Positions 1-64,000 of a DNA stretch of 64,000 bases are shown here, one piece after another (positions within the stretch are counted from its first letter, which is position 1; every line of letters starts with the position of its first letter). The notes below the pieces were generated by a model. The model ran no database searches and had not been told where the DNA came from. It saw only the letters and a list, made by a program, of their open reading frames with translations. Source of the DNA: Flavobacteriales bacterium. GTDB taxonomy: Bacteria > Bacteroidota > Bacteroidia > UBA10329. The stretch is taken from assembly GCA_021741075.1 (NCBI GenBank), contig JAIOYO010000002.1:28848-92847 (forward strand). Direction: 5' to 3'. The position numbers and the translations under genes are program-made.

Positions 1-20
1 TAGGCACGGAAAAACTGCAC

Positions 21-2804: not shown

Positions 2805-2833
2805 ACTGTTTGAATAGAGCGTGCAGAATTCTC

Positions 2834-4584: not shown

Positions 4585-4618
4585 GAGATTGCTTCTTTCC
4601 TCGCAATGAAGAGGCTAA

Positions 4619-32126: not shown

Positions 32127-32873
32127 TTGCAACAAGCCCCAACAGTTTCTGTTATTATTCCCCTCTACAAGAGCAAGCAGCTTTTCAAAAACATCATCAA
32201 CTTGACCCAAGAACTATTTCCCCTGCTTGGGTCAAAATCAGAACTTTTACTCATTAACGATGGAGATTCCGACCTTTTTGACCTCACTGTATTCGATGCG
32301 TTCACAACTATTAGCCGGTCTGTAACTTTACTGAGCCTTAGAAAAAATTTTGGTCAAATGACCGCCACTCTTTGCGGAATGAGCTTGGCAAAGAGCCCTA
32401 TTATACTGACAATAGATGCTGATTTTTACTGTGATTCAAACGTACTGAAAGAGTTAGTGATTAAGGCACAGGCTTCAAAGCACATCGCGTACATAGATTT
32501 ACAAGAACCAAACAACAACTTACCCATTCATCGAAAGGTTCTGAGTTGGATAAACAGAAAGGCCTTTACCCTCCTTGTTCACAATCCAGAATTGCATGCT
32601 TATACTGGGTCTTCAATTAGAGCAATTGAGCAATCATTGGTTGAAAGACTTATTCAAGAACACCGCAGTTCTGAATTAATGGATGTATGGTTGTTAAATA
32701 ATGCATTGAAGGTGTCGTTTATTCCCGTTAGCCAAAAAGGTGAGTCTAGTTCTTCTTATTCAATCACCTCCTTGATATCTTTCACATTTAGATTCATCCA
32801 TGGTTTGTTCAAGAAAAACAGCCGTTTCAAGGCTACTGACTATATTTATCAAATAGAAAAATTAAGCGGTTGA
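32127..32873 (+). CDS. GT2 family glycosyltransferase
   Basis: VSVIIPLYKS ... INDGDSD ... TIDADF (DXD). Confidence 0.6.
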   Translation: MQQAPTVSVIIPLYKSKQLFKNIINLTQELFPLLGSKSELLLINDGDSDLFDLTVFDAFTTISRSVTLLSLRKNFGQMTATLCGMSLAKSPIILTIDADFYCDSNVLKELVIKAQASKHIAYIDLQEPNNNLPIHRKVLSWINRKAFTLLVHNPELHAYTGSSIRAIEQSLVERLIQEHRSSELMDVWLLNNALKVSFIPVSQKGESSSSYSITSLISFTFRFIHGLFKKNSRFKATDYIYQIEKLSG

Positions 32874-34288
32874 CCGAAAAAAAAGGCCTTTCTGTTCTTA
32901 AAACAAAGTCTAGTGATGTTGAGGTTGTTTTCATAAACCCACGAGACTTGGTTGCTTGTGTGCCATATGTAAAGTTAGCCTCACTTGCAGGAACCCTTCG
33001 TGGTAACGGAATCCGCTCCCTTATTATAGAGCCAACGGCTACGAGGCTAAGTACAGCCGATGTGGTTCAACGTATCATTGATATTGATCCTAAAATCGTA
33101 TGTATTGGAGCATTCCCTTCCACTCTTCCTGATGCTTACAAACTAACATGTGAGCTAAAAAAGGAGGTGCCAAATACTACGTTGATACTGGAAGGCTACC
33201 ATGTAAATGCCGACCCTTCGATTCTAGTGGAAATGGATATTGAATGGGGTCTTCGAGGAGATGCTGAGTTGGCATTTGTCAATCTCTGTAAACACATATT
33301 ATCTGGTGAATCGTTTGATAATTCCATTCCAGGACTTGTACATTACATTGGGGGTATACTTAAAGACAATGGGCCAGCAACAATCAAGGATCTTGATTCA
33401 CTGCCCCTGCCCGCTTACGATTTGTTGTCTGTAGAGCGCTACTATTCTGCAAGCACCAACAAGCGATATATGCAGCTGTTCACCACACGTGGCTGTCCGT
33501 ACAATTGTAATTTCTGCGCTAACCCAACACAAATGAGTTTTCGCTATTTGAGCAACGAAAGAGTGCTGCAACACCTTAACGTACTCGTAAAAGACTGCCG
33601 TGTAGAATGGGTGGAATTTATGGATCTAACGTTTACAGTAAATCGCAAACGCACACTGTCTATGTGTCAAGCAATTATTGACTTTGGTGTTCATTTTGAC
33701 TGGGGATGTGAGACCCGAGCAGACTTGATAGATGAAGAATTGTTGTTAAAAATGAAGGACGCGGGTTGCAAAAAAATCACTTTCGGTGTTGAGTCTGGCG
33801 CGGAGCATGTTCGTTTTAGAACGGGAAAGAAAATTACCAATCAGCAGTGCATAGAAGCTTTCGATTTATGTCGAAAGCACGGAGTAAAAACAATGGCCAA
33901 TTTCATTTTCGGCCATCCCAACGAGACAGAATCTGAAATGTGGGAGACCGTACGCTTTGCAGCAAAACTAAAACCGTTCAACGTCATGTTTACGCGAATG
34001 GTGCCTATGCCAGATGTGGAGGTTTATAAATTGGGTATAAAAGAAAAACAATTCGGTTCTGATGTTTGGGTACGGTACATGAAGGGCGAAATAGAACATC
34101 CCACCTATATCCCTAACACCATTGACAAGTCTTTGATGAATAAGATGTACCAATTAGCTTACCTGCGGTACTATCTTTCTTTAAGAGTTATGCGAAGCTA
34201 CCTACCTCTGCTAATTGAACCTAAATTTTTTGTGCAATCAATTATCGTTTTTGGTCGAATGGCCTTCGGAAAACCTGTATTTAAATGA
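32870..34288 (+). CDS. B12-binding domain radical SAM protein (class B rSAM, probable methyltransferase)
   Basis: N-terminal Rossmann-like B12-binding region, then TTRGCPYNCNFCANP (Cx3Cx2C). Confidence 0.65.
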   Translation: MTEKKGLSVLKTKSSDVEVVFINPRDLVACVPYVKLASLAGTLRGNGIRSLIIEPTATRLSTADVVQRIIDIDPKIVCIGAFPSTLPDAYKLTCELKKEVPNTTLILEGYHVNADPSILVEMDIEWGLRGDAELAFVNLCKHILSGESFDNSIPGLVHYIGGILKDNGPATIKDLDSLPLPAYDLLSVERYYSASTNKRYMQLFTTRGCPYNCNFCANPTQMSFRYLSNERVLQHLNVLVKDCRVEWVEFMDLTFTVNRKRTLSMCQAIIDFGVHFDWGCETRADLIDEELLLKMKDAGCKKITFGVESGAEHVRFRTGKKITNQQCIEAFDLCRKHGVKTMANFIFGHPNETESEMWETVRFAAKLKPFNVMFTRMVPMPDVEVYKLGIKEKQFGSDVWVRYMKGEIEHPTYIPNTIDKSLMNKMYQLAYLRYYLSLRVMRSYLPLLIEPKFFVQSIIVFGRMAFGKPVFK

Positions 34289-34909: not shown

Positions 34910-36412
34910 ATGGCGAAGGTTCTATTTGTACAAGATATCGTTTACGAATACTTTGGAGTAATGTACATGAGTGCATACCTCAAAAAACATGGCCACGACT
35001 GTGACGTTGTTGTAGAATTTGCAGAAAAAGACTGGATGGAATCCGTGCGCAAGTACAAACCGGATATAATAGCTTTCTCTGTGCTTAGTGGGAGTTACAA
35101 CTGGGCAATCGATCGCGCAACACGATTAAAAAATGAGTTTGGAGCTCCAATCGTTTTCGGAGGCGTTCACGTGTACCTTAACCCAGCAGAAACAATTACC
35201 CAATCCTGTATAGACGCAATATGTATTGGAGAAGGAGAGATTCCGCTTAAAGAGCTGTGCGATGAATTTGATCGGTTAGGTCAAATGCCAAATGATGTAA
35301 AGGGTTTCTGGTTCAAAAACGAAGACGGATCTATACAGAAGAACGCACATCAACGTTTGGTCGAAGACCTTGATAGTCTGCCATTTGCTGATAGAGATAT
35401 CTATTACAAATACCCAAGTATCAAACGAAGAAACATTCTTCCGATGTTAGGCAGTAGAGGATGCCCATATACTTGCTCTTATTGCGTTATTCCAGCGGCT
35501 AAAAAAGTCTTTGAAGGCCAGGGCAAATTCATTCGCGAACGTTCTGCCGAAAGCATTCTAGAAGAGGTAGAGTTTTGCATTTCAAAATCAGACCGAAAGG
35601 AGTTTGTTCATTTTGTTGAGGACCACTTTGGCAATAATCGGCAGCTTGCACTTAAAGTACTACGAGGAATCTCCAAATTAAACAATGGCACGTTGGCATG
35701 GGGAGGTGCGATTAGGGTCGAACGTTTTAATAAGGAAGAATACGTTAAGGAATTAAGCACCACTAATCACGGGCTATTAGGAATTGCTGTAGAGTGTGGC
35801 GATGAAGACTATAGGCGAGACGTATTGAAGAGACCTGTTACAAATGCGCAAATTAGGGAGGCAGCAACTCTTGCTCGAAAATATGGCATTCAATTCGATA
35901 CATTAAATATGATCGGGTTACCAGGGGAAACCTTTGAACAAGCATTGAAAACTCTTGATTTAAACATTGAACTAAAACCCGTATTTGCCAATTGTTACGT
36001 CTACCAACCATATCCTGGGACTGATTTGCAGAAATTTTCCGTTGAACATGGACTCATTGACCCTAAGGTCATAGCAAATATTGGTCTTTCTTTTTACGAC
36101 CGGTATTGGAAAAGCAATAAAGAGCACAATACGATAATAAACCTACAGCGCATTTTTGGACTCGCGGTAAAATTCCCCATTCTCAAACAACCTCTAGTTT
36201 TCATTGCAAGAAAAGACATCCGCCCAATAGCCGATATGATTTTCGGGGCTTATTACATGTGGTGGCTGCTTTATTATTATAAACTGACACTAGGTCAAGT
36301 TGCCAACCTAGTTTACACTTGGACGCGATCCAAGTTCTCATTCCATGATGGCCCAGCGGCCGAGAGCATTAGGCAAGGAGAAGGTCAACTTTATCCTGAC
36401 ATTCGAGAATGA
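34910..36412 (+). CDS. B12-binding domain radical SAM protein (class B rSAM)
   Basis: N-terminal B12-binding-like region, then LGSRGCPYTCSYCVIP (Cx3Cx2C). Confidence 0.65.
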   Translation: MAKVLFVQDIVYEYFGVMYMSAYLKKHGHDCDVVVEFAEKDWMESVRKYKPDIIAFSVLSGSYNWAIDRATRLKNEFGAPIVFGGVHVYLNPAETITQSCIDAICIGEGEIPLKELCDEFDRLGQMPNDVKGFWFKNEDGSIQKNAHQRLVEDLDSLPFADRDIYYKYPSIKRRNILPMLGSRGCPYTCSYCVIPAAKKVFEGQGKFIRERSAESILEEVEFCISKSDRKEFVHFVEDHFGNNRQLALKVLRGISKLNNGTLAWGGAIRVERFNKEEYVKELSTTNHGLLGIAVECGDEDYRRDVLKRPVTNAQIREAATLARKYGIQFDTLNMIGLPGETFEQALKTLDLNIELKPVFANCYVYQPYPGTDLQKFSVEHGLIDPKVIANIGLSFYDRYWKSNKEHNTIINLQRIFGLAVKFPILKQPLVFIARKDIRPIADMIFGAYYMWWLLYYYKLTLGQVANLVYTWTRSKFSFHDGPAAESIRQGEGQLYPDIRE

Positions 36413-50047: not shown

Positions 50048-51034
50048 ATGTCAATGAGGTCTTCTTTGTTTAGAATAACTGTCCAAGCTTCTCTCTTTAT
50101 ATTGATTATTTGGGTTCTTACTTCGAAACTCAACATGGATTCGATTGTTCCAGCAATTCAATCGTTCTCGTTTTTTCCAATAGCAGTAGCGACCTTGTTG
50201 ATGCTGGTTCGTTATGCCTTGTTGGGAACAAGATGGTGGTTATCGATTACAAACAATCGTCCACCTCTTTTTTGGTCAATACAAACGGAATGGCACATCC
50301 TCTTTTTGGAGTTTGTGATTCCGTTTCCTGATGCTGAAGACATTTTTAGAATTTTGCTTCTGAAATTTCGGAACGTGACTGATGGATCCGCAATTAGAAG
50401 CGTTATACGAATGCGACTGGCGGGCGTGGCTGTGCTTCTTTGTCTTTTGTTGTTGTTTTTCATCTCATGGGGGCAGGCCGTAATTGGCCAAAAATCCACA
50501 GCCCTGTATTCAGTGGTGGCCCTATTTATTTTGTTTCTATTGCCCTTTACAGATTTTTTTGTTCGAAACGCTTTGCGTCTTGTCAAGCATGTGCCTAAAA
50601 TTGGTCAACCACTGGCCAAGCGGTTGACTGACGCACTCGAGGAGCCGCAAAAATCGGGTTTAATGACCGTTTTGTTTTTGGTTTCTTTGTTACAATCTGT
50701 TGTTCAAGCAGCAGTCATTTTTGTTTTGCTTTCCAAGACAAGTCAATCAATTCCTTTTCTGGACATACTGTGCCTAGTTCCATTGTTAAACCTAAGTTTC
50801 ATCTTGCCATTAAGTATACAAGGCTTCGGGTTACCCGAAACTTGTTTAATATTTATGCTTCCCTTTTTTGGAGTGCCCTTGGAGGAAGCCACTGCCGTTG
50901 CTTTGGTTCATTTGCTCATTTACTCAACGATGATTTTTATGGGCGCCTGTTTGTTCTTCATTAATTCAGAACTAACATTGAAAGGCTTACGGAACATGTT
51001 TAGAAAACCTGGACGCTTTCCAGACGCAAAATGA
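50048..51034 (+). CDS. UPF0104/LPG-synthase-TM-like (flippase-like) membrane protein
   Basis: 328 aa, 8 TMs. N-terminal FRITVQASLFILIIWVL..L and R/K-rich loops are typical of YbhN-type proteins that pair with GT2 enzymes. Confidence 0.4.
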   Translation: MSMRSSLFRITVQASLFILIIWVLTSKLNMDSIVPAIQSFSFFPIAVATLLMLVRYALLGTRWWLSITNNRPPLFWSIQTEWHILFLEFVIPFPDAEDIFRILLLKFRNVTDGSAIRSVIRMRLAGVAVLLCLLLLFFISWGQAVIGQKSTALYSVVALFILFLLPFTDFFVRNALRLVKHVPKIGQPLAKRLTDALEEPQKSGLMTVLFLVSLLQSVVQAAVIFVLLSKTSQSIPFLDILCLVPLLNLSFILPLSIQGFGLPETCLIFMLPFFGVPLEEATAVALVHLLIYSTMIFMGACLFFINSELTLKGLRNMFRKPGRFPDAK

Positions 51035-52046: not shown

Positions 52047-53624
52047 TTAGGTGGCTTTTACAATTACACGGAACAGATACCATGATTTACCTACAGTAAG
52101 TGCTGGTTTTTCAGTTGTTATCAATGGACACACACTTTCAAAGTCTGTTCGTTCTCCGATAAATACAACCAATTGAAAAGAGTCTGGGCAAGCTTTAACA
52201 ATTCTTTCATAATAATGATCTTGAAAGCCCTTTTCAAATCGTTTTAGGGCATTGGGGTCGTAAATTTCTGCTAGCTCGGAAAAATGTTTGGTGTTTGGTT
52301 TAGTGGGGACAATCTTGACGTCTATTAATTCGTTTCCCGTGCGAAAAGAGATATACTTAATTACCGCATCGAACATCTCTATATTTACTAAAGGGTCTCC
52401 CACAAGAACTACCTTGCCCTCATTCTCGCGGGTTTCAGCCACAAACCTTATGAGTTCTTGTATGGCTTTGCCAGAATCAATGTATTCGGAAATCATATTT
52501 CTCGACCACACCGATTGAATACAAAAAATAAGGATAAGCGCAGAAGCAATTAGACTTTTCTGAACGTTTGATTCTCGTAAAGAAGCAATGCCGATTGCTA
52601 CTATTACAAAAAACACTATCAGTGAAGGAATAAGGTATCTGCCTGCGTAACCAACTGATGAAAACAGCACTAACTGAGCCAAAATGCAAAGCATGCCAAT
52701 GGCGAAAAGGCTCCAAAACCAGCGGCCACCTTTGTTCCGAACGTAAACCAAAAAATATAAAATGGCAAGTACAATAAAGTACGGCAAGGGAGTTGACGCT
52801 AGCCATTGATGCTGCCAAACATGATTAAAATAACTGATGAGATTATCTACAACCGCTGTCGGCTCACTAAGAATATAATCTGCCTCCGAGTTTGTTGTGT
52901 CTACAACTAGAAAGGCTCCTGCAAAAAGCGCGCAGATTCCAAACACTCCTAATGAGAAATAATGCTGCCCTTTGCTCTCCAATGTGGTGCTTTTATTCCA
53001 TTCTGATTGGCAGAAATAGGAAAACACGACCAAGAAGGGTGCTAACAATACAAAACTTTCTTTAGTAAAAAACAGGAGAAATAATAAACCCAGCGTTTTC
53101 CAATCGTGTTTACCATTGGCAATTCGGTTTAATAGAATCCCCGCAATCAGCAACGATACGCTTTCAATTGTCGCCAACCGAGTCATCAACTCTGTTGGAG
53201 TTCCAACAACAAGCATTAGCGGCAACACAAAGGAAATGACCTTTGACAAGCCCAACGTCCTTCCCAACGACTGAAATTGATGCAAAGCCAACGTCATTAA
53301 CGTCAAAACCAGCGTGTGCCACATCCACCACCGAGAGCCAAACATGGCAGAAAACAATCCAAGGTATACGTTCAAACCTCGGCTTATGCGGTTTCCGCTT
53401 TCATTCCAAACCCGCAAAACATAATCATCGAGCGCAGCTTGTTTAAACAGAAGGTGATTGGCCATTATTTCGTGATCTTCCATCATGTGAAATCCGGACT
53501 CGATTAGCCCCGAAACCATGTACACTATCAGAAAAATCAGCCCGTAAGGCCAAGCCTTTGTCATTTTCATTACAAATCGTACTTTCCCGTCCAAACCACG
53601 GTTTCTTCTTTTCATCCCAATCAA
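52047..53624 (-). CDS. polytopic membrane protein, GT-C (ArnT/PMT)-like putative glycosyltransferase
   Basis: More than 11 TMs. First extracytoplasmic loop carries an acidic HMMEDHE motif reminiscent of the GT-C DE/DExxY loop. The assignment is weak. Confidence 0.35.
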   Translation of the reverse strand: MIGMKRRNRGLDGKVRFVMKMTKAWPYGLIFLIVYMVSGLIESGFHMMEDHEIMANHLLFKQAALDDYVLRVWNESGNRISRGLNVYLGLFSAMFGSRWWMWHTLVLTLMTLALHQFQSLGRTLGLSKVISFVLPLMLVVGTPTELMTRLATIESVSLLIAGILLNRIANGKHDWKTLGLLFLLFFTKESFVLLAPFLVVFSYFCQSEWNKSTTLESKGQHYFSLGVFGICALFAGAFLVVDTTNSEADYILSEPTAVVDNLISYFNHVWQHQWLASTPLPYFIVLAILYFLVYVRNKGGRWFWSLFAIGMLCILAQLVLFSSVGYAGRYLIPSLIVFFVIVAIGIASLRESNVQKSLIASALILIFCIQSVWSRNMISEYIDSGKAIQELIRFVAETRENEGKVVLVGDPLVNIEMFDAVIKYISFRTGNELIDVKIVPTKPNTKHFSELAEIYDPNALKRFEKGFQDHYYERIVKACPDSFQLVVFIGERTDFESVCPLITTEKPALTVGKSWYLFRVIVKAT

Positions 53625-53634
53625 ATGAATTCGA

Positions 53635-55344
53635 ATGGTTTCGCGTTTAACACCAAATGTAAAAGGTATTTATCTGTCGCAACACGTTGACAAGATACCT
53701 TGGTTGGTCTTTTTATTCGCGGCACCGATTAGTTATTTTTTCGGCTATTTCGAAAGTCATGTTGACCTTGTAAATCACAGCATGACCGAAAGTTTGTGGT
53801 TTGAACAGACTAAATCTCCACTTTGGAATGCAACCGGCTTTCTTGTCCCTTGTTTAGACAATGCACTAAACGCCACGTTTGGAGAGTATGATTTCTACGC
53901 ACTGTTCATGGTTTCCATCAATTCAGCTGTATTATCGTTTCTGATTTGGTCCCTGCTAAAACTAGCCTCGAAGCTTGACATTTCGACTGGATATTTCATA
54001 GCAATTTGCTCTTGGTTAATCGTTGCTGCACCGCAAATTTTGACCATTAACAGCACTCGAATAGCAATTACAGGCACCTTTGCTGTGCTGCTCTATCTCG
54101 GCTCAAAGGATAATTGGCGAGGAATGCTTTGCATTACAAAAGCATTCTTGTTGTTCCTGTTTTTGGCAATTTTATCGCTGGTGAGGATGGAAGCTGTAGT
54201 TTTAATAGGCGCATACGTAGGTTTCCCTCTATTTATCTACAACCGCTGGTCGTACAAATTTTTGTCGCCTGTGATTATTGGGTTAGCGATAATGATTGGC
54301 TACAACCTTTCGCTGGAAGCTCGCGCCCCAGAAGCAATGAAAGTCTTCTATTATTACGAAAACGAATTGATAGATCGCGGGAATGTGTGTGTCGAAAATG
54401 CTTATACCAGAGGTCTTTTGGATGATAAAACACTGGTACTGAAGAACAGCGAGGACAGCCTGTCGATGCAAACTACAACACTTATTTACCACTCTCTGCC
54501 AGACATTGGATTGCTAAAAACCAGTTTTGTCGAAAACACGCTGTGCTCAGGAAAGCTTAAGCCTCTTGTTCATCTGTTCCTAGGAGGAATAAATTTAGAT
54601 AGCTGGCGTAGTTGCTTTACACTGTCTATCGAAGAGTCTAAGAGAGGGCTTTGGGTGATGATTGCTTCTTTGTTACTGTTAGTGTTTTTAAGTTTTGCAC
54701 ATGGGTTTGATAGATTCACTTTATCAGCTTTCTTGATGTTCCTCTTACCCGTGTTATTACTATTTCATATTACGGTTCCGGATAGGTTTTTGATACCCTA
54801 CTATACTTGTTTTATATCTATTTATTTGATTTTATCATGTCTTAAACAACCCCGCGTAGGCCCAATCTCAATACTTTTTTCTTTACTTATCGCTTCTTTT
54901 TTAATTGTCGAGCAAGGACTGTGTATTAAGGAAAAACAGGCAAAAGAAAAACTAATCGCTAACTACATAGCTGGTGTTCGGAAAATCGTAAAAGAAGAAA
55001 AGCGTTTTGTTGTTCTACAAACTAACTCCCCTGAATTGTTTATGCCACAACGCGTACAACAAAACTATTCACCAATAGACTCTGTCTTGTTTATGGATGA
55101 ATACTTTACGTATAAAACTTTTTATGAAACTTGGCGTGCAACCTGTAATTGCAATCCTGCCTCCATTACAGACCGTTTGGAATTTGCAGCAATAACTAAA
55201 GCAGCGTACATTTCAACTGAATCAGGAGTTCATTTTAGTTCAAAGTACGCCCACTTAATGCATAAATTTCCAGTGAAATTCATTCCAAAATCAAACTTCG
55301 GAAATGCTCTTACGAGGTATCAAGTGCAAATAAGTCAACAGTAG
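53635..55344 (+). CDS. polytopic integral membrane protein
   Basis: 569 aa, more than 12 TMs, divergent from 52047..53624. Confidence 0.4.
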   Translation: MVSRLTPNVKGIYLSQHVDKIPWLVFLFAAPISYFFGYFESHVDLVNHSMTESLWFEQTKSPLWNATGFLVPCLDNALNATFGEYDFYALFMVSINSAVLSFLIWSLLKLASKLDISTGYFIAICSWLIVAAPQILTINSTRIAITGTFAVLLYLGSKDNWRGMLCITKAFLLFLFLAILSLVRMEAVVLIGAYVGFPLFIYNRWSYKFLSPVIIGLAIMIGYNLSLEARAPEAMKVFYYYENELIDRGNVCVENAYTRGLLDDKTLVLKNSEDSLSMQTTTLIYHSLPDIGLLKTSFVENTLCSGKLKPLVHLFLGGINLDSWRSCFTLSIEESKRGLWVMIASLLLLVFLSFAHGFDRFTLSAFLMFLLPVLLLFHITVPDRFLIPYYTCFISIYLILSCLKQPRVGPISILFSLLIASFLIVEQGLCIKEKQAKEKLIANYIAGVRKIVKEEKRFVVLQTNSPELFMPQRVQQNYSPIDSVLFMDEYFTYKTFYETWRATCNCNPASITDRLEFAAITKAAYISTESGVHFSSKYAHLMHKFPVKFIPKSNFGNALTRYQVQISQQ

Positions 55345-55481: not shown

Positions 55482-56612
55482 GTGAATCAGATAATTCCGC
55501 TATTCAAAAACACACATGAACAGCTCGGTCTAACCGACCCTGTATATTCTCTGGGTGTGAACGACCAGACCGTCTTGTGCAAACAGTTCCTCTCAAGAAT
55601 CGTAGGGACCGAGGATGTGTTTTTCACAAAATCATGCACTCAGTCTTTGGAGTTAGCAATCATGATTCTTAATCTGCCTCCAAATAGTGAGATAATACTC
55701 CCGTCTTATGGATTCGTGTCACTGGCAAACGCAGTGGCTCTATTGGGTCATAAGTGTGTGTTTGTTGATTGTGAAATTGAAACGCTTAACATCTCTGCTG
55801 ATGCTATAGAAGCAGCCATCACCGAAAGAACAAAAGCGGTAATCTGTATTAATTATGCCGGAGTACCATGCGAATACGATAAAATCAACTCCATTTGCAA
55901 TCGAAACAACCTCTGGCTAATTGAAGATAATGCGCATGGGTTCCTTGCCAACTTAAATGGCAATCCGCTCGGCTCGTTTGGCGATATATCAACATTCAGT
56001 TTTGATCACCTAAAAATGATTACTTCATATGAGGGCGGAGCGTTGGCCATAAACAATAAATCCTTGGTTGGCGGTGCTTCTTCTTGTTTGGATATGGGAA
56101 CTAATCGGTCTGAATTCAAAGCAGGCAAGGCGCCCTTTTATGAATGGACGTCACTTGGCACAAACTCTGTATTGGCGGCTCCGCTTTTTGATCTTTTGAT
56201 AAAGCAGTTTCATGAATCTCCAACAATTCTTAGTTCATTCGTTAATGGTTGGCTCTTTTACCAAGAAGCACTGGCCCCTCTATTTGCTAAGCACGGAATT
56301 AAGGGGGCTAAGGTCGTTTCTACCCTAAACATCAACGGTTACATTTTCTGGATTATGACTCGATCTGCAACCGAGCGAAGTGCACTAATTGCTGAATTGC
56401 AGACAAAAGGAATTACGCTAAGTCCACACTATTCTGCTCTACACAAATCCCATTACGGAAAAACCTACCATTCATATTCTGGTGACATGAAAAACACGGA
56501 AGAAGCCGTAGCACAAATGGTTCGTCTTCCACTGTTCTATGGTATCACCGTTGATGAGCAAAAACGAGTGGTTTCGGAAATTGAACAATTTTATGCTGAA
56601 CTGGATGGATAA
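55482..56612 (+). CDS. DegT/DnrJ/EryC1-family PLP aminotransferase, WecE-like (second copy)
   Basis: SFDHLKMITSYEGG (catalytic Lys), IEDNAHG, C-terminal RLPLFYGIT. Paralog of 11422..12552. Confidence 0.7.
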   Translation: MNQIIPLFKNTHEQLGLTDPVYSLGVNDQTVLCKQFLSRIVGTEDVFFTKSCTQSLELAIMILNLPPNSEIILPSYGFVSLANAVALLGHKCVFVDCEIETLNISADAIEAAITERTKAVICINYAGVPCEYDKINSICNRNNLWLIEDNAHGFLANLNGNPLGSFGDISTFSFDHLKMITSYEGGALAINNKSLVGGASSCLDMGTNRSEFKAGKAPFYEWTSLGTNSVLAAPLFDLLIKQFHESPTILSSFVNGWLFYQEALAPLFAKHGIKGAKVVSTLNINGYIFWIMTRSATERSALIAELQTKGITLSPHYSALHKSHYGKTYHSYSGDMKNTEEAVAQMVRLPLFYGITVDEQKRVVSEIEQFYAELDG

Positions 56613-57552
56613 TGAAACCAATGCAGCATTTGGTATCTCTAGGTTGATTTCGATTGTCGTTCCGTGCTATCAAAGCGACTCGGAATTGATTGAGCTTGAA
56701 AGGGCGATTAGCACACTTCACCAAGAAATTCAGAACGCATATAAACTTGAGGTTGTGTTTGTTGATGATGGATCTACCGACAGCACCCTTGATGGTTTAA
56801 AAAAAATTAAAGCCCGGGCTCCTTTTGAGTGTAAAATTGTTGTTCTAACCGGCAACTTCGGGTCGTATAATGCTTTTCATGCAGGCATATTAAACACAAG
56901 CGGAGAGGCCATCATTCAACTTCACGCGGACCTTCAGGACTCTCCCAAACATATTCCATTAATGCTAAGTAAGTGGGCAGAGGGCGCTAAACTTGTTATC
57001 GGTCAGCGTGTAGCTAGAGAAGAAAGTATGTCAACCAAGTTCTTTTCTGGAATGTACCACAATATGGTAAAGCGCTTTGCACTTCCACACATTCCCGATG
57101 GAGGTTATGACCTTATACTTCTTGATAAAGAAATTGGTGAGCACCTAAGGCAAATAGACGTTCACAACATAAACCTAGTTTATTTAATCTCATGGTTAAG
57201 TCAGCGCTACGAAGCCGTTCCGGTTGTTAGAGAAAGTAGAAAAACTGGGAAGTCTCAGTGGTCCTTTTCGAAGAAAGTAAAGCTGGTAATAGACACCTTT
57301 ATTGGCTTTTCATACGCTCCAGTCAGATTTTTTCGAATTCTAGCGATAGTCGAGCTTCTTCTTTTTCCAGTGCTCGTAATTCTGGTAACAAAATCTAACT
57401 GGGATCTAACCATTAAGGTCTGCTCCATCATTGTTTCAAGCTGGATGGTCACCATCCTAATCGGAATCACGTTACTATCCGAAATGCTTTGGAGAACGCT
57501 TGTTTCCGCCAGAAAAAGACCGCCATACATCATAGAAAAAGTGATTCAGTAA
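56593..57552 (+). CDS. GT2 polyprenyl-phosphate sugar transferase (ArnC/GtrB-like; second copy)
   Basis: IVVPCYQSD ... FVDDGSTDST ... HADLQDSP ... C-terminal TM helices. Start ATG at 56593 overlaps the WecE-like stop. Confidence 0.65.
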   Translation: MLNWMDNETNAAFGISRLISIVVPCYQSDSELIELERAISTLHQEIQNAYKLEVVFVDDGSTDSTLDGLKKIKARAPFECKIVVLTGNFGSYNAFHAGILNTSGEAIIQLHADLQDSPKHIPLMLSKWAEGAKLVIGQRVAREESMSTKFFSGMYHNMVKRFALPHIPDGGYDLILLDKEIGEHLRQIDVHNINLVYLISWLSQRYEAVPVVRESRKTGKSQWSFSKKVKLVIDTFIGFSYAPVRFFRILAIVELLLFPVLVILVTKSNWDLTIKVCSIIVSSWMVTILIGITLLSEMLWRTLVSARKRPPYIIEKVIQ

Positions 57553-58850
57553 TGAACCTCCGCATTGCAGACTGGTGGAATTCTAAGGTGGCCATGCTTG
57601 TTGGATGGTCTTATTTTTTTGTTCTCCTTTCTGATGTTGAGCCCAATTTATATTTCAAACTTTTACCTGTCATCCTCATTTGGCTATTCTCCACAGCTGG
57701 TTTTGGGTATTACGTAAATGATTGCTTCGATGTAGCAATTGACGAAAAAGCATCCAAACCAAACTACGTTTCCCAACATTCCAAGTTTAAGCGGTTTTCA
57801 ATATCGCTGTTTTTGGCGGTAGTTTCATTGGCAAGTGCCTTGGTTTTATTTTGGAATCAGCCCTATTTTATTGCAATTGTTGGTGTTCAGCTCATACTGT
57901 TTGTCTTGTACTCAGCCTCGCCTTTTAGATGGAAAGAGGTTCCTTACATAGACGTTGTGACTGATTCGGTTTATGCCCAAGTTATTCCTGTAACCATAAT
58001 GGCATTGGTAATTGTTTCAATGCAAACCAGTCCGCCCAACTCATTTCAACTCTTGGTCTATTGTCTCACAGGGTTTTGGGGGGTTCTTTCGGGTCTTCGA
58101 AACATAGTAGAACATCAAGTAATAGACTTCCAAAATGATGAGATTTCTGGCGTATCAAATACCGTTCAATTAATCGGCATTTCAAATGCTACTGCATTTC
58201 TCAATAAATGGATTATTCCGATGGAATGGTTGCTTTTTGCGGCAATCATTATTTACTCTGGTTTTCACCTACCTCCATTACTCATTCTCACTGCCCTATT
58301 CGTAGTTACTATTGGATTTACTACGCCCATAGCTGAGGGAATTATTGAGAAAACCAGACCTTTTAGGTTAGGTAGCCGGTTGCTAGAACCACGACTCATT
58401 TACGAATTCTGGTTCCCTTTGGCTTGTATTATGGTTTTGATGCTCCTGAATTGGAAATATCTGCTTTTAGGTATTCTTCATTTAGTGCTTTTTAGAAATT
58501 GGATTGCCATTTTGATTGGGGACTTTATGGGGAATGTTGTCTACTACCAAACTTCAGACGTGCTTTGGCATCGTGGTGCGCTACGGTTTTACTATCAGAC
58601 TAAAACTGTTTTGAGCATGCTTTATGGTATTTCTAAGGATGTTGCAAACCGAATACTAACTACCATTTGGGCAATTCTTGTAGGTTTCTCATACCGCTTG
58701 TTTCACATTATTTACTTCAAAGGCATTTTAGAACTTTGGATTGCCTTTAAGTTGCTTGTAAATTACTTAGCCTATCAATTTAAATTCCGAGTGCTTGGCG
58801 ATAAAGAAGAACAGATTCGATGGAAAAATAGGAATGGCGGAAACCGTTAA
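57552..58850 (+). CDS. UbiA-family polyprenyltransferase-like membrane protein
   Basis: YYVNDCFDVAIDEKA (NDxxDxxxD) and a later DFQND (DxxxD) motif, 8-9 TMs. Start taken at internal ATG 57552 (TAATG overlap with GT2 stop). Confidence 0.5.
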   Translation: MNLRIADWWNSKVAMLVGWSYFFVLLSDVEPNLYFKLLPVILIWLFSTAGFGYYVNDCFDVAIDEKASKPNYVSQHSKFKRFSISLFLAVVSLASALVLFWNQPYFIAIVGVQLILFVLYSASPFRWKEVPYIDVVTDSVYAQVIPVTIMALVIVSMQTSPPNSFQLLVYCLTGFWGVLSGLRNIVEHQVIDFQNDEISGVSNTVQLIGISNATAFLNKWIIPMEWLLFAAIIIYSGFHLPPLLILTALFVVTIGFTTPIAEGIIEKTRPFRLGSRLLEPRLIYEFWFPLACIMVLMLLNWKYLLLGILHLVLFRNWIAILIGDFMGNVVYYQTSDVLWHRGALRFYYQTKTVLSMLYGISKDVANRILTTIWAILVGFSYRLFHIIYFKGILELWIAFKLLVNYLAYQFKFRVLGDKEEQIRWKNRNGGNR

Positions 58851-59625
58851 TGGCTTATGGATTGGTAATCGGCTTTCTCTCATGGAAACCCTCACCATTA
58901 CTTCCTTCCTAGCGCAAGGACACGAATTCCGTCTTTTCGTGTACGAACCCATTTTAACACCGCTACCTTCAGGTTGCATTATTGAAGACGCAAATAAAAT
59001 CCTGCCCGAATCCGCAGTTTTCAGATACAAAAACACCACTCAGTTCGGACAAGGAAAAGGAAGTGTTTCTGGTTTTTCAGACATCTTTCGGTACAAGCTC
59101 CTTTATGAAGAGGGTGGGTGGTGGTCAGATATGGATGTTACGTGTTTGAAACATTTAGACATTCCTTCTGATTACTATTTCAGAGAACATCCCACCCTAC
59201 CGTTGGTTGGAAACATGATGAAAGCCCCAAAAGGTTCTGAACTCATGAGAAACTGTTTTGAACAAGCCTCTTCTCAAGTTGACGAGCACAATACAGATTG
59301 GCACAAGCCAATTGAAATACTAGCCAATGCAGTAGCACATTTTGAACTCAACCAATACATTGATAGTGGCTACAAACGGTCAAATCCTGATGCCTGGGAT
59401 TACGTTCGTAATCTTCTTATTGGAAAAACTGAAATGCCACAAGACTATTATTTCATTCATTGGATGAATGAAAATTGGAGGTCTAAAGGGCTAGACAAAA
59501 ATGACTTTATGATTGGTTCGGCTTACTTTAAACTCCTTGTTAAATACGGATTAATTGAGGATGATTTCAACGCTTTTCAGCGATGGAAAAATCGTTTCAG
59601 GCATCGTTACTTAAATTGGTATTAG
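58834..59625 (+). CDS. GT32-family glycosyltransferase (Och1/capsule-type, DXD)
   Basis: LWIGNRLS ... FSDIFRYKLLYEEGGWWSDMD matches the GT32 D..R..LL...GG.Y.D.D signature. Confidence 0.55.
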   Translation: MAETVNGLWIGNRLSLMETLTITSFLAQGHEFRLFVYEPILTPLPSGCIIEDANKILPESAVFRYKNTTQFGQGKGSVSGFSDIFRYKLLYEEGGWWSDMDVTCLKHLDIPSDYYFREHPTLPLVGNMMKAPKGSELMRNCFEQASSQVDEHNTDWHKPIEILANAVAHFELNQYIDSGYKRSNPDAWDYVRNLLIGKTEMPQDYYFIHWMNENWRSKGLDKNDFMIGSAYFKLLVKYGLIEDDFNAFQRWKNRFRHRYLNWY

Positions 59626-59697: not shown

Positions 59698-61122
59698 ATG
59701 AGTTTCTTCAAAAGCCTTTTTAATCGAAAAAGTATTGGGAACTCTGAATCTGGACTCCCCGCAGAAACAATTAGAGCCTATAACCAAACAAGGCGCGTTC
59801 GAGATAAATCACTTTTATGCCACGCCCCTTTCTCAAACATGTACTTCAACACAGAGGGGCATGTTGCTGTGTGCTGGAAAACGTTCCATAAGCATGAAAC
59901 CTATTCTGAGGAAAAATCCATCATGGATATTTGGAAAGGGGAGAACTTTGAAAAAATTAGAGCGGGCATAAAGTCATGCAATCTTGATTTTGGGTGTCAA
60001 GAGTGCAAAAAGCACCTGTTAGAAGGGAATTATGTAAACGTGCTTTCCAAGGCATACGACAACGACCATTTACATCCAATTTACCCAACAATTATGGAGT
60101 TTGAGCTCAGTAACCGATGTAATTTGGGCTGTACCATGTGCAACGGAAACCTCAGCTCCACTATTCGTAAGGATCGAGAGAAACTTCCGCCTTTACCTTC
60201 TCCTTATGGTCAAAAGTTTGTTGAAGAACTGAACGAATTCATTCCGCACCTTAATGAAGCACGTTTTAATGGAGGTGAACCTTTCCTCATTAAACAATAC
60301 TACGACATCTGGGACAATATCATTAAGCTGAATCCGAAGCTTAAACTGGTGATTGCAACCAACGGTACGGTGCTTACTTCTAAGGTGAAAGAGTACATGG
60401 AAAAATCGAATTTCCATTTCAACATATCCATTGATGGTTTTAGTCCAGAAACGTATGGGTCTATTCGGATAAACGGAAATTTTGAGAAACTGATGGAGAA
60501 CCTCGAGTACTTTATCACTTATTGCCAAAAAAATAAACGCACGTTGTGCATCATGATAAACCCACTACGGCAAAACTGGTGGGAAATGCCCGCATTCGTG
60601 AATTGGTGCAACCAGAAAAACATTCACCTCTGGTTCAATAGCATCATCAAACCTGCCGACCAAGCACTTTGGAGCTTGCCTTCTTCTGAATTAGGAAATA
60701 TTCTGAAAAAGCTTTCATCTGCCAAATTAGAGATGCCAAATACGGGAGACCGAGCCATTCACAAATACAACATCGACACCTATAATAACCTCGTAAATCA
60801 GCAAATAAAAACATGGTATTTAGAGGCTGTTGAGAGAGAGGAAACAAGTAATAATTTGTCTGAAAAACCCGAGGTAAACGCTAAACAACAAGCCCAGAAA
60901 AAAATAACGACTTATTTCGGTGCCGAACATAAAAGCGACTGCCAATTTCTCCTCGATAAATTAAGTGTTCTAGAGTCAACAATTGAAACCGAACAGCTCA
61001 TTAATCGCCTCTATGCTCTTGTTTTGAATAGCGACCCAGCGGTTCTTTTGGAAATGGCCAAAGACCTATCTGCGGAGGAACTCAAACAAAAGTTTGAATC
61101 AGAAGTAACCAAGAATCAATAG
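59698..61122 (+). CDS. radical SAM protein with N-terminal SPASM/twitch-like Cys-rich domain (paralog 1 of 3)
   Basis: Core EFELSNRCNLGCTMCNG (Cx3Cx2C) at about residue 140, with GGEPFL downstream. It is preceded by CHAPFSNMYFNTEGHVAVCW...IWKG...SCNLDFGCQEC. About 200 aa of unique C-terminal extension. Confidence 0.6.
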   Translation: MSFFKSLFNRKSIGNSESGLPAETIRAYNQTRRVRDKSLLCHAPFSNMYFNTEGHVAVCWKTFHKHETYSEEKSIMDIWKGENFEKIRAGIKSCNLDFGCQECKKHLLEGNYVNVLSKAYDNDHLHPIYPTIMEFELSNRCNLGCTMCNGNLSSTIRKDREKLPPLPSPYGQKFVEELNEFIPHLNEARFNGGEPFLIKQYYDIWDNIIKLNPKLKLVIATNGTVLTSKVKEYMEKSNFHFNISIDGFSPETYGSIRINGNFEKLMENLEYFITYCQKNKRTLCIMINPLRQNWWEMPAFVNWCNQKNIHLWFNSIIKPADQALWSLPSSELGNILKKLSSAKLEMPNTGDRAIHKYNIDTYNNLVNQQIKTWYLEAVEREETSNNLSEKPEVNAKQQAQKKITTYFGAEHKSDCQFLLDKLSVLESTIETEQLINRLYALVLNSDPAVLLEMAKDLSAEELKQKFESEVTKNQ

Positions 61123-62720
61123 TTTTCCTCTACGTGCGCCAATAAATTCTCGGTTGTATTGTTGGTGATTAATTGGAGGTGATTCACAACACTTTTTCGG
61201 TCTATGTCATCAATCAAGTCACTCAAAATGGCTTGCTGCCTTCTCATATCTGTTACGTGCGCTAGGATTGCCGCAGCTTTAGTTTCTGTTTCATTTAGCA
61301 GCTCTACTCCATAAAAAGCCCCAGCCAAAAGAGGCATTAATTTGAAATAGGCCTCAAAAAACCATGAATCGCCATTCTTTTTCCAAAGATTAAAGAGGAG
61401 CGGTTTAATCGGTTTTGGTTCGTCCGAATCTAAAAAACCAACGGTAATGAGCTGGTCTTTTATAGCAGGTTTTGCCCATGCGTAATGCTTTACTAGACTC
61501 TTTGCAAGCAACAAAACATCGGGCGAGTTGGAAGGGATTTCTGATAATAAGCTAGGGTTAACTAAATCAACATTTTCATAACTATCCAATTTTTCCAGCC
61601 TGTTTTTAGCCCGTTCACTCTTCCAATGCTTAACCGTATTGTTCAGCTCCGCAAAGGCTTTCACGTTCATCTTTTCTGTGTTGGTTTTATTCGGCAACGA
61701 AACACTAGCAAAATATTCCGCTATCTGAGTAAGCTCGTCAAAGTTCATGTATCGCATCGACAAGTGCCCTGGATTCCACACAACGTTAAAATGTATTGGA
61801 ATCTCTTTGGCATTACAGAACTCAATTAGTTTGGGAATTCCTTTCCAATTCGTGCTCATGGCACACGCGGCAATGGTTAAATATGTGTTCTTCTTTTTTG
61901 TTAGGGCATGCAACTGTTCTAGGTTTTCTAAAACCCTCGACAGTTTTGCACCAGACCTTACAGAAGCAAATTCTTCAGGATCAATGGAGTCAACGGAAAT
62001 AACCAAACCAACATTCAATCTGGTCATTATTTCCTTTACCCGGTTGTTAAAAACCGTTCCGTTTGTTGTAATGTGTATTCGGATATTGGGGTTTACAACC
62101 GCAACTCGTTCCCATATTTTGTAATAAATCTCAATCAAAAATGGTTCTCCTCCCAGAAACTTGAGGTCGGTTAAATAAGGCATGAATTCAGCTACCTGGT
62201 CTACAAAAGCATCATCGTAAGGATTGTGCATTGGCGGAAGTTGCTCACGATTCTTCCTTATGGTTGAAGAAAAGTAACCGTTGCACATTTCGCATTCTAG
62301 ATTACACGTGTTGGATATTTCAAACTCAAAAACACGTGGCATGGTAGATTTATCCTTCAGTCCTACAAAGCTTTTAAGCTTCTCCATTTTTCCCTGCGGA
62401 ATCGCATACTCATCGTAATGGATTGCTTTGGTTCCCTGATAATTTCCACTTTCCAATAAAATGCCGCACAGTTTACACCCTCCATCCAGTTTTTTCTGAG
62501 CAATATTCTTTCGAAGCTGATGGATTGCTAATCCATTCCATATTTCTGAAATTGTCTGGTCTGGATATCGGCCTAAAACATCCGTTCGGTTAAAACAACA
62601 TGCTGTTACATTTCCGTTCTGTTCAAAGTTTAAGCTTACCGATGGAGCATGACATACTTTGTCTCGCGCTTGAACTGGTCTTAACGCATTATACTTTTCT
62701 ATATCGGTTGATGTAATCAT
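61116..62720 (-). CDS. radical SAM protein with N-terminal SPASM/twitch-like Cys-rich domain (paralog 2 of 3)
   Basis: CHAPSVSLNFEQNGNVTACCFNR...IWNG...GGCKLCG, then EFEISNTCNLECEMCNG and FLGGEPFL. Start at internal ATG 62720 (ATGA overlap with upstream paralog). Confidence 0.6.
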   Translation of the reverse strand: MITSTDIEKYNALRPVQARDKVCHAPSVSLNFEQNGNVTACCFNRTDVLGRYPDQTISEIWNGLAIHQLRKNIAQKKLDGGCKLCGILLESGNYQGTKAIHYDEYAIPQGKMEKLKSFVGLKDKSTMPRVFEFEISNTCNLECEMCNGYFSSTIRKNREQLPPMHNPYDDAFVDQVAEFMPYLTDLKFLGGEPFLIEIYYKIWERVAVVNPNIRIHITTNGTVFNNRVKEIMTRLNVGLVISVDSIDPEEFASVRSGAKLSRVLENLEQLHALTKKKNTYLTIAACAMSTNWKGIPKLIEFCNAKEIPIHFNVVWNPGHLSMRYMNFDELTQIAEYFASVSLPNKTNTEKMNVKAFAELNNTVKHWKSERAKNRLEKLDSYENVDLVNPSLLSEIPSNSPDVLLLAKSLVKHYAWAKPAIKDQLITVGFLDSDEPKPIKPLLFNLWKKNGDSWFFEAYFKLMPLLAGAFYGVELLNETETKAAAILAHVTDMRRQQAILSDLIDDIDRKSVVNHLQLITNNTTENLLAHVEENY

Positions 62721-63916
62721 TCCTTTTTCTGTGCTCTCCACGATTTTAGTTGTGCAATAAGATGCTGTAGTTGAATTTGGAGATGCTTAGGAAACGTTTG
62801 TTTCGAATATAACTCAATAACCTCATCAAGTTCCGATTGGCCCATGGTCTGAAGAGAAACATCAGGAAGAAGCTCTGTAGCACTGCCTGATTCAATCGAA
62901 TTGAATTTATGAACGCCTTCAAGTTTTCCACCTAACGGACCATAAACCACGTTAAAGTAAATATCTAAGTCGTTTTTATCGCAAAACCTCATTATATCCG
63001 GAATCTCCTTCCAATTTTGAATCATTGGGCAAACCGAAAATGATTTCAGCTTTTTGCTGCCCAAAAGCCAATGAATGTTGTTTTCTAAATCTTCAAAACA
63101 TCCATTTCGTCTTATAGACTCCCAAGTGCTCTTATTAAGACTATCAATGGAAAGTGTAATTCGGCAATTTGGTAGCCGTTCAATAATGCCTCTAGCCCGA
63201 GAGCTGAGCATGGTGCCGTTTGAGGTGATACCTACATCTACATTCGGATTTACCTCAATAATAGCCTCCCAAATGTCATAATATGGTCCTATCAAAAATG
63301 GTTCTCCTCCCAAAAAGTTAGCCCTAGCAAGCTGGGGCAAATAGTTCTTTACTTGATTAACAAACTCTTTATCGTATGGGCTTTTAAGCGGGGGAAGTTT
63401 TTCTCTGTTCTTACGAATGGCAGACGACCACTTACCTCCGCACATAATACATTCAAGGTTACAATGGTTCGATATTTCAAACTCAAAAACCAGCGGTGCT
63501 TGGTTCGGTTTCTCTTCCTTTTTCCGATAAAATGAACCTAGTATTGAACTTAATAGACCATTGTTTTCTGGCTTGACTTGTTGGTCTTTTATTAAAGGTA
63601 CGTAGTCGTCAAAATGATTAATAAGCACACTCTCGAAATTTCTCTCCACAATCATTCGGTCGCATAATCCGCAACCCAATTCCAGCTTATTGGACGCCAA
63701 GGAGTCGCGGAGTTTTTTCACCTTTTCACCGGACCAAATTTCATCAATCGTATTTTCGGGATAACTGCCTAAAACGTATTGCCTGTTAAAACAACAGGCC
63801 GTTACATTACCTGTTTGGTCAAAATTTAGCGATAAGACAGGAGCGTAACACAAATAGGCCGAGTTTCGGACACTTCTGGTCTGGTTGAAGGCCTTTATTT
63901 GCTCGATAGTTGCCAT
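62717..63916 (-). CDS. radical SAM protein with N-terminal SPASM/twitch-like Cys-rich domain (paralog 3 of 3)
   Basis: CYAPVLSLNFDQTGNVTACCFNR...IWSG...LGCGLCD, then EFEISNHCNLECIMCGG and FLGGEPFL. Confidence 0.6.
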   Translation of the reverse strand: MATIEQIKAFNQTRSVRNSAYLCYAPVLSLNFDQTGNVTACCFNRQYVLGSYPENTIDEIWSGEKVKKLRDSLASNKLELGCGLCDRMIVERNFESVLINHFDDYVPLIKDQQVKPENNGLLSSILGSFYRKKEEKPNQAPLVFEFEISNHCNLECIMCGGKWSSAIRKNREKLPPLKSPYDKEFVNQVKNYLPQLARANFLGGEPFLIGPYYDIWEAIIEVNPNVDVGITSNGTMLSSRARGIIERLPNCRITLSIDSLNKSTWESIRRNGCFEDLENNIHWLLGSKKLKSFSVCPMIQNWKEIPDIMRFCDKNDLDIYFNVVYGPLGGKLEGVHKFNSIESGSATELLPDVSLQTMGQSELDEVIELYSKQTFPKHLQIQLQHLIAQLKSWRAQKKE

Positions 63917-64000
63917 AACGCTAAAGTAACTAGCAATAGTCCAATTGACCTACAAATTCCAGAACGAAGCCATTACCTTTGGGCTAGATGTCTAATTCAC

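Follow-up and report, generated by a model that had tools for sequence, protein, structure and literature searches.

Three genes encoding paralogous radical SAM (rSAM) proteins lie together in the window, by which we mean the whole 64,000-nt stretch of DNA analysed. Paralog A (59698-61122, + strand) encodes 474 aa comprising an N-terminal twitch domain, an rSAM core and a helical C-terminal domain; paralog B (61116-62720, - strand) encodes 534 aa with the same order of parts and an all-helical C-terminal domain; and paralog C (62717-63916, - strand) encodes 399 aa in which the core is followed only by a short tail. The ORF of B as listed runs over 61116-62741 (-) from a GTG (541 aa), but translation probably begins at the ATG at 62720, since P0001, a database protein 100 % identical to B, has 534 aa. 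The stop codon of C and this start of B share an ATGA (...gaaTGAtt / ATGatt), by which C is translationally coupled to B, and the convergent genes A and B overlap by 7 nt (61116-61122).

The positions and strands of the three ORFs and both overlaps are as a preliminary description of this DNA had reported them. Its three-fold paralogy holds in that A, B and C are homologous, and falls short in number: a fourth paralog, D (502 aa), is encoded on the same contig ~8 kb past the window end (locus L001), which turns the triad into a tetrad. Neither tRNA genes nor Rfam elements were found in the window.

The auxiliary domain precedes the catalytic core

The Cx3Cx2C motif of radical SAM enzymes begins near residue 140, as first described (C141/145/148 in A, C139/143/146 in B in the 534-aa numbering, C152/156/159 in C). 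In every paralog and every homolog examined, a twitch domain at residues ~20-105 lies upstream of this motif. The profile matches follow the same order: PF13186 (SPASM) matches residues 41-103 of A, 30-92 of B and 23-85 of C with 25.3-33.2 bits (A 25.3, C 33.2; threshold 21.5), and PF04055 (Radical_SAM) comes after it at ~136-310 (A 136-303, C 147-312) with 50.3-62.9 bits (threshold 29.5). The N-terminal SPASM/twitch-like domain that had been proposed from motifs is thereby borne out, and the underlying block, C-x-A-P...G-x-V-x-x-C(C)...I-W-x-G...G-C-x2-C, is indeed present upstream of the core, with the small correction that its F comes five residues after AP, not four.

In A the twitch domain spans 59809-60015 (+; residues ~38-106), with C41, C59, C100 and C103 as putative ligands. 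In B it spans 62451-62663 (-; residues ~20-90) and consists of C23, a beta-hairpin at residues 29-39, C41(C42) and C82-x2-C85, the last pair at the start of a helix; the hairpin is thus flanked by C23 and C41 in the manner of SPASM/twitch domains. The four Cys are invariant in the three-way alignment of A, B and C. Conservation in homologs, on which the preliminary description had made its proposal depend, is at least 99 %: across 124 sequences the four twitch and three rSAM Cys are conserved at 0.99-1.0, with the Cx3Cx2C Cys at 100 %, and this holds inside each orthogroup as well (96-100 % for the twitch Cys of A in 25 A-type orthologs). An adjacent fifth Cys occurs in the B and C types, and the seven-Cys AuxI/AuxII motif of a full SPASM domain is absent. 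Because the domain has four conserved Cys, we assign it as a one-cluster twitch and not a two-cluster SPASM.

When the N-domain profile was compared with the PDB, the best match was the twitch of BtrN (E 2.7e-5), aligned Cys-to-Cys at all four positions, and Foldseek ranked BtrN first and second with the N-domain, followed by SkfB in third place. The N-domain is therefore homologous to the BtrN twitch by both sequence and fold. A review of these enzymes defines the SPASM/twitch domain as a C-terminal extension of the core (PMC9012708), whereas in A, B and C it is N-terminal. Judged from the sequences, the reversed domain order is real.

Core, C-terminal domain and structure model

The core of B (61761-62339, -; residues ~128-320) is predicted to form the partial (beta/alpha)6 TIM barrel of the radical SAM superfamily, carrying C139-x3-C143-x2-C146, a GGEPF motif and an extra conserved Cys, C286, which closes a core strand. 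In structure comparison, the core of the AF2 model of B (pLDDT 93.7) was nearest to BlsE, MoaA, SkfB, CteB and anSME. By sequence, the full-length protein matched only CteB in the PDB, at E 0.006 and over the core, and therefore has no solved relative.

Beyond the core, B continues into a helical domain at 61119-61682 (-; residues ~347-534), delimited by DSSP and pLDDT in the model. An extension of about 200 aa had been described for all three proteins; this fits B (~190 aa), while A has ~150 aa and C ~70 aa. By hhalign, the helical domain of B is homologous to its counterparts in A and D, and those match each other (A-B 93.8 %, B-D 95.1 %, A-D 96.7 %). It has no Pfam match, and nothing informative matched it outside the family.

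Paralogy, orthogroups and family membership

Pairwise identities of 33-38 % among A, B and C in the three-way alignment (30-41 % to B in a larger alignment) and scores of 474-727 bits against a single family HMM place their paralogy far beyond chance. Across loci, orthologs of A, B and D are 40-53 % identical, compared with 30-41 % between paralogs, and more than 20 MAG loci of Bacteroidota share the gene order B+ A- D-. The A, B and D types are ancient orthogroups maintained in conserved synteny, an observation new in this analysis; the C type is rare and was seen in only a few loci. Canonical NF033640 members of ~416 aa share loci with A/B/D-type genes in related MAGs, and in some other lineages A-like and B-like units are fused as single proteins, also a new observation. 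These fusions, together with the adjacency of the genes, suggest that the A and B types probably cooperate, possibly as a complex; the orthogroup identities and the recurrent synteny speak for distinct roles, and the separate orthogroups would perform different steps.

The preliminary description could match the architecture to no described rSAM subfamily. One exists: NCBIfam NF033640 ("N_Twi_rSAM", twitch domain-containing radical SAM protein) curates exactly this permuted arrangement and is the top NCBIfam match for all four proteins, and many homologs already carry its name. The permuted architecture is accordingly already catalogued and not a discovery. Against the curated whole-protein cutoff of 170 bits, B scores 182.1, A 149.5, C 143.2 and D 158.6, and a canonical neighbour in another locus (L046) scores 308.8. 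By these scores B is assigned to NF033640 and A, C and D are placed as outlying relatives below the cutoff; together they read as a C-terminally extended sister branch. They share with NF033640 a four-Cys twitch followed by the Cx3Cx2C core, and differ from it in the additional helical domain of 150-190 aa in A, B and D, which the 398-position model lacks.

We found no family member with a characterised function, and the name NF033640 is descriptive only. Literature searches on the family, the permuted architecture, NF033640 and an rSAM, UbiA and glycosyltransferase cluster in Bacteroidetes returned no work on the family, and searches under its NCBI name returned only classical C-terminal SPASM/twitch enzymes. 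The family has not turned out to be a known sugar- or lipid-modifying rSAM of this architecture, the outcome that the preliminary description had named as fatal to its view. The family comprises ~940 representatives at 50 % identity (E<=1e-30), and polysaccharide gene clusters of Bacteroidota and at least one high-GC lineage typically carry 2-7 of its genes at a locus. A defence-system reading was rejected because the viperin model, with a cutoff of 180 bits, gave only 39-45.

Gene neighbourhood

The flank at 55.4-59.6 kb is of glycosylation type, as originally described, and profile searches identified its four genes, all on the + strand. They encode a DegT/DnrJ/EryC1-type sugar aminotransferase (55482-56612; PF01041, 215.6 bits); an ArnC/PgfS-like GT2 with C-terminal TM segments (56593-57552; PF00535, 81.5 bits), which resembles polyprenyl-phosphate glycosyltransferases (NCBIfam PgfS 127 and ArnC 109 bits, both below cutoffs); a polytopic membrane protein of the UbiA superfamily (57552-58850; 432 aa, cluster c1); and, directly upstream of A, a DXD glycosyltransferase of 263 aa (58834-59625; Gly_transf_sug, PF04488, 31.5 bits).

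Long or short forms of the DXD glycosyltransferase occur in 25 + 11 of 46 loci compared. It adjoins an rSAM gene in the same orientation in 25 of these 46, with gaps of -4 to 72 nt, and is the most tightly coupled neighbour of the rSAM cassette and among the most frequent. The UbiA-like protein, likewise among the most frequent partners, is present in 30 of the 46 Bacteroidota loci; tight coupling of the rSAM cassette to these two proteins is new in this analysis. A c1 representative scores 47.1 bits against PF01040 (threshold 34.2) and both Asp-rich motifs are invariant, but its best PDB matches are generic (DGGGPS and AfUbiA, ~1e-5) and it falls far under the cutoffs of NCBIfam prenyltransferase models, so that we assign it to no subfamily. 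A role like that of DPPR synthase, in supplying a sugar donor, is therefore speculative.

The locus containing D adds WbuX (206.3 bits; cutoff 203.2), a carbamoyltransferase, GFO_IDH_MocA and a further GT2. In an unrelated lineage of 69.7 % GC, four twitch-rSAM genes stand among Wzy_C and four GT4/GT1 genes, with no UbiA gene, an arrangement likewise new in this analysis. GDSL-type proteins are encoded in 27 loci, and KAS III, acyl-AMP ligase and PAP2 in the window.

Discussion

Our observations are most consistent with A, B, C and D being N-terminal-twitch rSAMs that carry out BtrN-like, two-cluster tailoring of sugars in a surface glycan, a reading that we hold to be reasonably probable. From its Cys motifs, each paralog is predicted to bind two [4Fe-4S] clusters: a SAM-cleaving cluster on Cx3Cx2C within the partial TIM barrel, and an auxiliary cluster fully ligated by the four invariant twitch Cys. 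The 5'-deoxyadenosyl radical would take hydrogen from a sugar C-H, and the auxiliary cluster would accept an electron, giving an oxidation, epimerisation or decarboxylation of the BtrN/BlsE type. It is the gene neighbourhood that points to a cell-surface polysaccharide or glycoconjugate as the target, and the sugar could be nucleotide-linked, polyprenyl-linked or already at the polymer level.

BtrN, a 2-deoxy-scyllo-inosamine dehydrogenase, is the archetypal twitch rSAM, BlsE is a cytosylglucuronate decarboxylase and MoaA is the GTP 3',8-cyclase. What the family has in common with BtrN is the four-Cys ligand set and the homology of the domain; BtrN, in contrast, has its twitch C-terminal to the core, is ~250 aa long without the helical C-domain of A and B, shows low identity outside the twitch and has no pathway context in common. 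BlsE and MoaA show 13-15 % identity and align only over the ~220-residue core, their auxiliary domains are C-terminal, and the family scores far under the cutoffs of their models. The four-Cys auxiliary cluster of BtrN is a proposed electron acceptor in a two-electron oxidation, whereas the three-Cys cluster of MoaA binds substrate (PMC9012708); the mechanism suggested above for A-D is drawn by analogy from the former.

The strongest competitor, which we nevertheless regard as unlikely, is action on a lipid or prenyl compound. In this reading a prenylated membrane compound would be built by the UbiA-like prenyltransferase, the rSAMs would modify its hydrocarbon chain or head group, possibly by C-C coupling, cyclisation or oxidation, and a sugar head group would come from the glycosyltransferase. 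There is precedent in Tes/GDGT-MAS and HpnH, which are rSAMs acting on lipids. The UbiA-like gene usually forms one operon with the glycosyltransferase and B, both of its catalytic Asp motifs are invariant, and its nearest solved relative, DGGGP synthase, is a lipid ether synthase; the GDSL-type proteins and PAP2 also speak for a lipid, which KAS III and acyl-AMP ligase suit equally well. However, UbiA-family enzymes also produce polyprenyl-phosphate sugar donors, so the presence of this gene is compatible with a glycan pathway, and in the high-GC lineage Wzy and four GT4 genes accompany the rSAM genes while UbiA is absent. Tes/GDGT-MAS resemble the paralogs no more closely than a dozen other rSAMs do, and the WbuX, DegT, carbamoyltransferase and ABC-2/Wzm genes are markers of sugar pathways.

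Alternatively, the auxiliary cluster could behave as in MoaA, binding and orienting a substrate such as a nucleotide sugar for a redox-neutral rearrangement or cyclisation. The MoaA cluster, however, is ligated by three Cys with one Fe site left open, whereas the four invariant twitch Cys imply that here, as in BtrN, the cluster is closed and ligated by Cys throughout, and the MoaA model (TIGR02666) scores only 48.8-63.4 bits against a cutoff of 284; we consider this improbable.

Most SPASM/twitch rSAMs (SkfB, CteB, PqqE, anSME) are peptide or protein maturases. That A-D are RiPP-type maturases, cross-linking or oxidising a peptide or protein encoded nearby, seems less probable still. In its favour, SkfB, CteB, SuiB, anSME and PqqE rank with the best structural matches to core and N-domain, and many weak NCBIfam matches are RiPP maturases. 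However, the auxiliary domains of anSME, SkfB, CteB and PqqE are C-terminal and, SkfB excepted, seven-Cys two-cluster SPASM domains; BtrN and BlsE, the nearest twitch relatives in sequence and fold, act on carbohydrates; the neighbours are consistently sugar-pathway genes; and the gaps beside the triad are only ~72 nt. The search for precursor-peptide ORFs that had been suggested extended 4 kb from the cassettes of 46 loci and found conserved small ORFs only as pairs from near-identical MAGs. Inspection of the loci revealed no genes for an RRE, a peptidase or a peptide exporter, and A, B and C have no RRE or PqqD Pfam match.

Within the glycan-tailoring reading, we put forward tentatively, and with clearly less expectation, that A, B, D, sometimes C, and the canonical NF033640 copies found beside them in related loci might form a dedicated multi-enzyme radical machinery, possibly partly heteromeric through A-B pairing, by which the sugars of a single surface polysaccharide are functionalised at C-H positions in several different ways. 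Such polysaccharide-tailoring rSAMs would make up a class not yet described, in which the permuted twitch and the family-specific helical C-domain could serve recognition of a polymer- or lipid-linked substrate.

The reversed order shows that a twitch auxiliary-cluster domain can come from the N-terminus. If glycan tailoring is correct, anaerobic-type radical chemistry enters surface-polysaccharide biosynthesis, and unusual sugars would be expected in Chitinophagales that are abundant in the environment. Concrete entry points for biochemistry are offered by the A-B fusions, the coupling to a glycosyltransferase and the conserved orthogroups.

Three paralogous radical SAM proteins with an N-terminal twitch domain

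Here we report that A, B and C, three paralogous radical SAM (rSAM) proteins, are two-cluster-type enzymes with an N-terminal, four-Cys twitch domain homologous to that of BtrN, the archetypal twitch rSAM. The ORF list bears out the positions in the preliminary description, with A at 59698-61122 (+, 474 aa), B at 61116-62741 (-, 541 aa from a GTG) and C at 62717-63916 (-, 399 aa). Both reported overlaps are present: the 3' ends of A and B meet tail-to-tail over 7 nt (61116-61122), and an ATG at 62720 gives B an ATGA start/stop overlap with C, as read directly from the sequence. This ATG is most likely the start of B, since the identical public protein P0001 has 534 aa.

A, B and C are 30-41 % identical in alignments and share the Cx3Cx2C motif near residue 140 and an upstream block, C-x-A-P...C(C)...IWxG...GCxxC. 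The block exists as proposed, with the claimed motif spacing wrong by one. The triad is real but incomplete, as a fourth paralog, D (502 aa, minus strand), lies at 720-2228 of L001, a Logan contig that is the same contig reaching past the window end, ~8 kb beyond window position 64000. The interval between C and D holds PhyH, CN-hydrolase, WbuX amidotransferase, carbamoyltransferase, GT2 and GFO_IDH_MocA genes; in most related loci D directly adjoins A.

The idea of a SPASM/twitch-like domain ahead of the core withstood the profile search. PF13186 (SPASM) matches over its whole model at residues 41-103, 30-92 and 23-85 of the three proteins (25.3-33.2 bits; threshold 21.5 bits), and PF04055 follows downstream at ~136-310. 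The N-terminal cysteines (C23, C41, C82 and C85 in B numbering) are conserved at 0.99-1.0 across 124 sequences, as are the three rSAM cysteines, and the same holds within each orthogroup. When the isolated N-domain profile was compared with all PDB sequences, the best match was the C-terminal twitch of BtrN (E 2.7e-5), with all four cysteines aligned. By Pfam, Cys conservation and BtrN homology, the block is thus a SPASM/twitch domain, and its pattern (C-x17-C-x40-C-x2-C, the first two cysteines flanking a beta-hairpin) is that of a one-cluster twitch, not of a seven-Cys SPASM. Since SPASM/twitch domains are defined as C-terminal extensions (PMC9012708), the domain order is reversed here: the twitch is C-terminal in BtrN, whereas A, B and C carry its homolog at the N-terminus.

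The full-length model of B is confident (pLDDT 93.7, pTM 0.84) and comprises the twitch domain (residues ~20-90), a helical linker, a six-stranded partial TIM barrel carrying Cx3Cx2C and GGEPF (~128-320) and an all-helical domain (347-534). The C-terminal extension, put at about 200 aa in each protein, is close to that in B (~190 aa) and shorter in A (~150 aa) and C (~70 aa). A, B and D have mutually homologous C-terminal domains (hhalign 94-97 %) that show no Pfam match or informative structural match. Each orthogroup keeps one extra cysteine on the same core strand, at aligned positions in B (C286) and C (C296) and four residues earlier in A (C284); speculatively, it could serve as an H-atom donor, as known from rSAM epimerases.

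Relation to a catalogued family

All paralogs have as their top NCBIfam match NF033640, "N_Twi_rSAM: twitch domain-containing radical SAM protein". B scores 182.1 bits against a curated cutoff of 170, while A (149.5), C (143.2) and D (158.6) do not reach it. An rSAM of ~416 aa found beside A-, B- and D-type genes (the orthogroups named after these paralogs) in related loci scores 308.8 bits across all 398 model positions. These scores place the window proteins in a divergent sister branch of the canonical family, one with an extended C-terminus. One such canonical member, lacking the C-terminal extension, lies at 14629-15876 of locus L046; others co-reside with A-, B- and D-type genes in L014, L024, L032 and elsewhere, so that some loci hold up to seven twitch-rSAM genes.

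The structural interpretation in the preliminary description is therefore correct, but its suggestion that the architecture matches no described rSAM subfamily fails, because NF033640 already describes it. Many homologs, mostly from Chitinophagales MAGs, bear the NCBI name "twitch domain-containing radical SAM protein". Literature searches on the family, architecture and cluster type found no paper on the family, the NCBI family name returned only classical C-terminal SPASM/twitch enzymes, and a PDB search found no solved relative. The family is thus catalogued, but no functional characterisation turned up in the literature searched. Undescribed, as far as we searched, are the multi-orthogroup cassette, its tight linkage to a DXD glycosyltransferase and a UbiA-like gene, the shared helical C-terminal domain and the A-B fusions.

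Orthogroups, gene order and fusions

An exhaustive search with C against 1.84 billion representatives returned 940 proteins at E<=1e-30. Reference genomes yielded 44 loci, almost all in Bacteroidota MAGs (Chitinophagales, Sphingobacteriales, Flavobacteriales), each with 1-7 family genes and mostly with 2-5. A, B and D form separate orthogroups: identity to the window proteins is 40-53 % for orthologs, above that between paralogs, and more than 20 loci show the gene order B(+) A(-) D(-); C-type genes are rare. The paralogs are old and individually conserved.

In about 20 loci (window 61116-61122, L003, L005, L013-L021, L024-L030, L035, L037 and L045), the B and A genes are convergent and share 4-13 nt at their 3' ends, leaving no space for a terminator between them. 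The A-type gene of L032 (11539-12995) is broken into two ORFs, of 339 and 167 aa, and may be a pseudogene or carry a frameshift in this MAG.

Fusion proteins of 870-981 aa (P0242, P0244, P0275, P0281) contain two complete twitch-rSAM units, the first of them A-like. The second resembles B in P0244 and P0281, gives nearly tied matches in P0275 and is A/D-like in P0242, where it reads YASYEC at the position of the GCxxC pair and so lacks one auxiliary-cluster cysteine. A two-unit fusion gene occupies 3157-6042 of L048.

Gene neighbourhood and proposed function

Neighbour clustering across 46 loci yields a typical string of methyltransferase, UbiA-like protein, (AsnB), DXD glycosyltransferase, B, A, D and GDSL. 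UbiA-like proteins occur in 30 of the 46 loci, GDSL-like proteins in 27, the long and short forms of the DXD glycosyltransferase in 25 and 11, methyltransferases in 18, PhyH in 16 and AsnB in 15. The DXD glycosyltransferase directly adjoins an rSAM gene, co-oriented, in 25 loci (gaps of -4 to 72 nt). The window flank, with DegT, an ArnC-like GT2, a UbiA-like protein and a short DXD glycosyltransferase, agrees with the glycosylation-type locus first proposed; L001 adds PhyH, CN-hydrolase, a WbuX N-acetyl-sugar amidotransferase (above cutoff), carbamoyltransferase, GT2, GFO_IDH_MocA, paralog D and a GDSL protein.

Genetic coupling of the paralogs to glycosyltransferases in polysaccharide loci is established in at least two distant lineages, and we suggest that these enzymes tailor sugars of a surface glycoconjugate. 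The predicted four-Cys auxiliary cluster resembles that of BtrN, which has been compared as closed and four-Cys, unlike the open, three-Cys cluster of MoaA (PMC9012708). Because of this likeness, the closed cluster would be expected to accept an electron, favouring oxidation-type chemistry over substrate ligation; candidate reactions are dehydrogenation, epimerisation via a radical or keto intermediate, and decarboxylation. The orthogroups may catalyse different steps, with A and B probably acting together.

The main rival to a sugar substrate is a lipid or prenyl compound, as the UbiA-like partner gene and the lipid genes in the window would favour; it is weakened by a fusion-bearing locus of 69.7 % GC, from a distant lineage, in which UbiA is absent. 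Besides the fusion, this locus encodes a Wzy_C protein, an adenylation-carrier-thioesterase protein, four glycosyltransferases of the GT4/GT1 type and three more members of the family, one of them truncated at the contig end. A role in RiPP biosynthesis is unlikely, as the search for precursor-peptide ORFs within 4 kb of the cassettes in 46 loci found no small ORF conserved across loci and thus no candidate peptide substrate. A 75-aa ORF kept between two related MAGs only (L013 15969-16196; L020 15932-16159) looks like a small, helical, carrier-protein-type protein.

Other tailoring genes in the window

Genes for C-H functionalisation and tailoring are densely packed on the plus strand at 22093-42263. 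The run includes five PhyH-domain genes (one a CMAS-type methyltransferase fusion, another with two PhyH domains in 545 aa), two B12-binding radical SAM genes (32870-34285 and 34910-36409, both +), an ABC-2/Wzm-type permease, a GT2, an Asp/Asn beta-hydroxylase, an acyl-AMP ligase, KAS III, a GNAT and three ORFs of 344-563 aa without a Pfam match. Together with the twitch-rSAM cassette, this run points to an island, longer than 40 kb, for glycoconjugate tailoring.

At 52050-55344, two large membrane proteins, both polytopic, flank the sugar genes, one (525 aa, DUF6056/GT_STM0557-like) probably a GT-C-type glycosyltransferase and the other (569 aa) without a family match. An LPG_synthase_TM protein is encoded at 50048-51031, and this gene content is consistent with periplasmic transfer from lipid-linked sugar donors. 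The G+C content is 47-48 % at 1-6000 versus ~40 % across most of the window.
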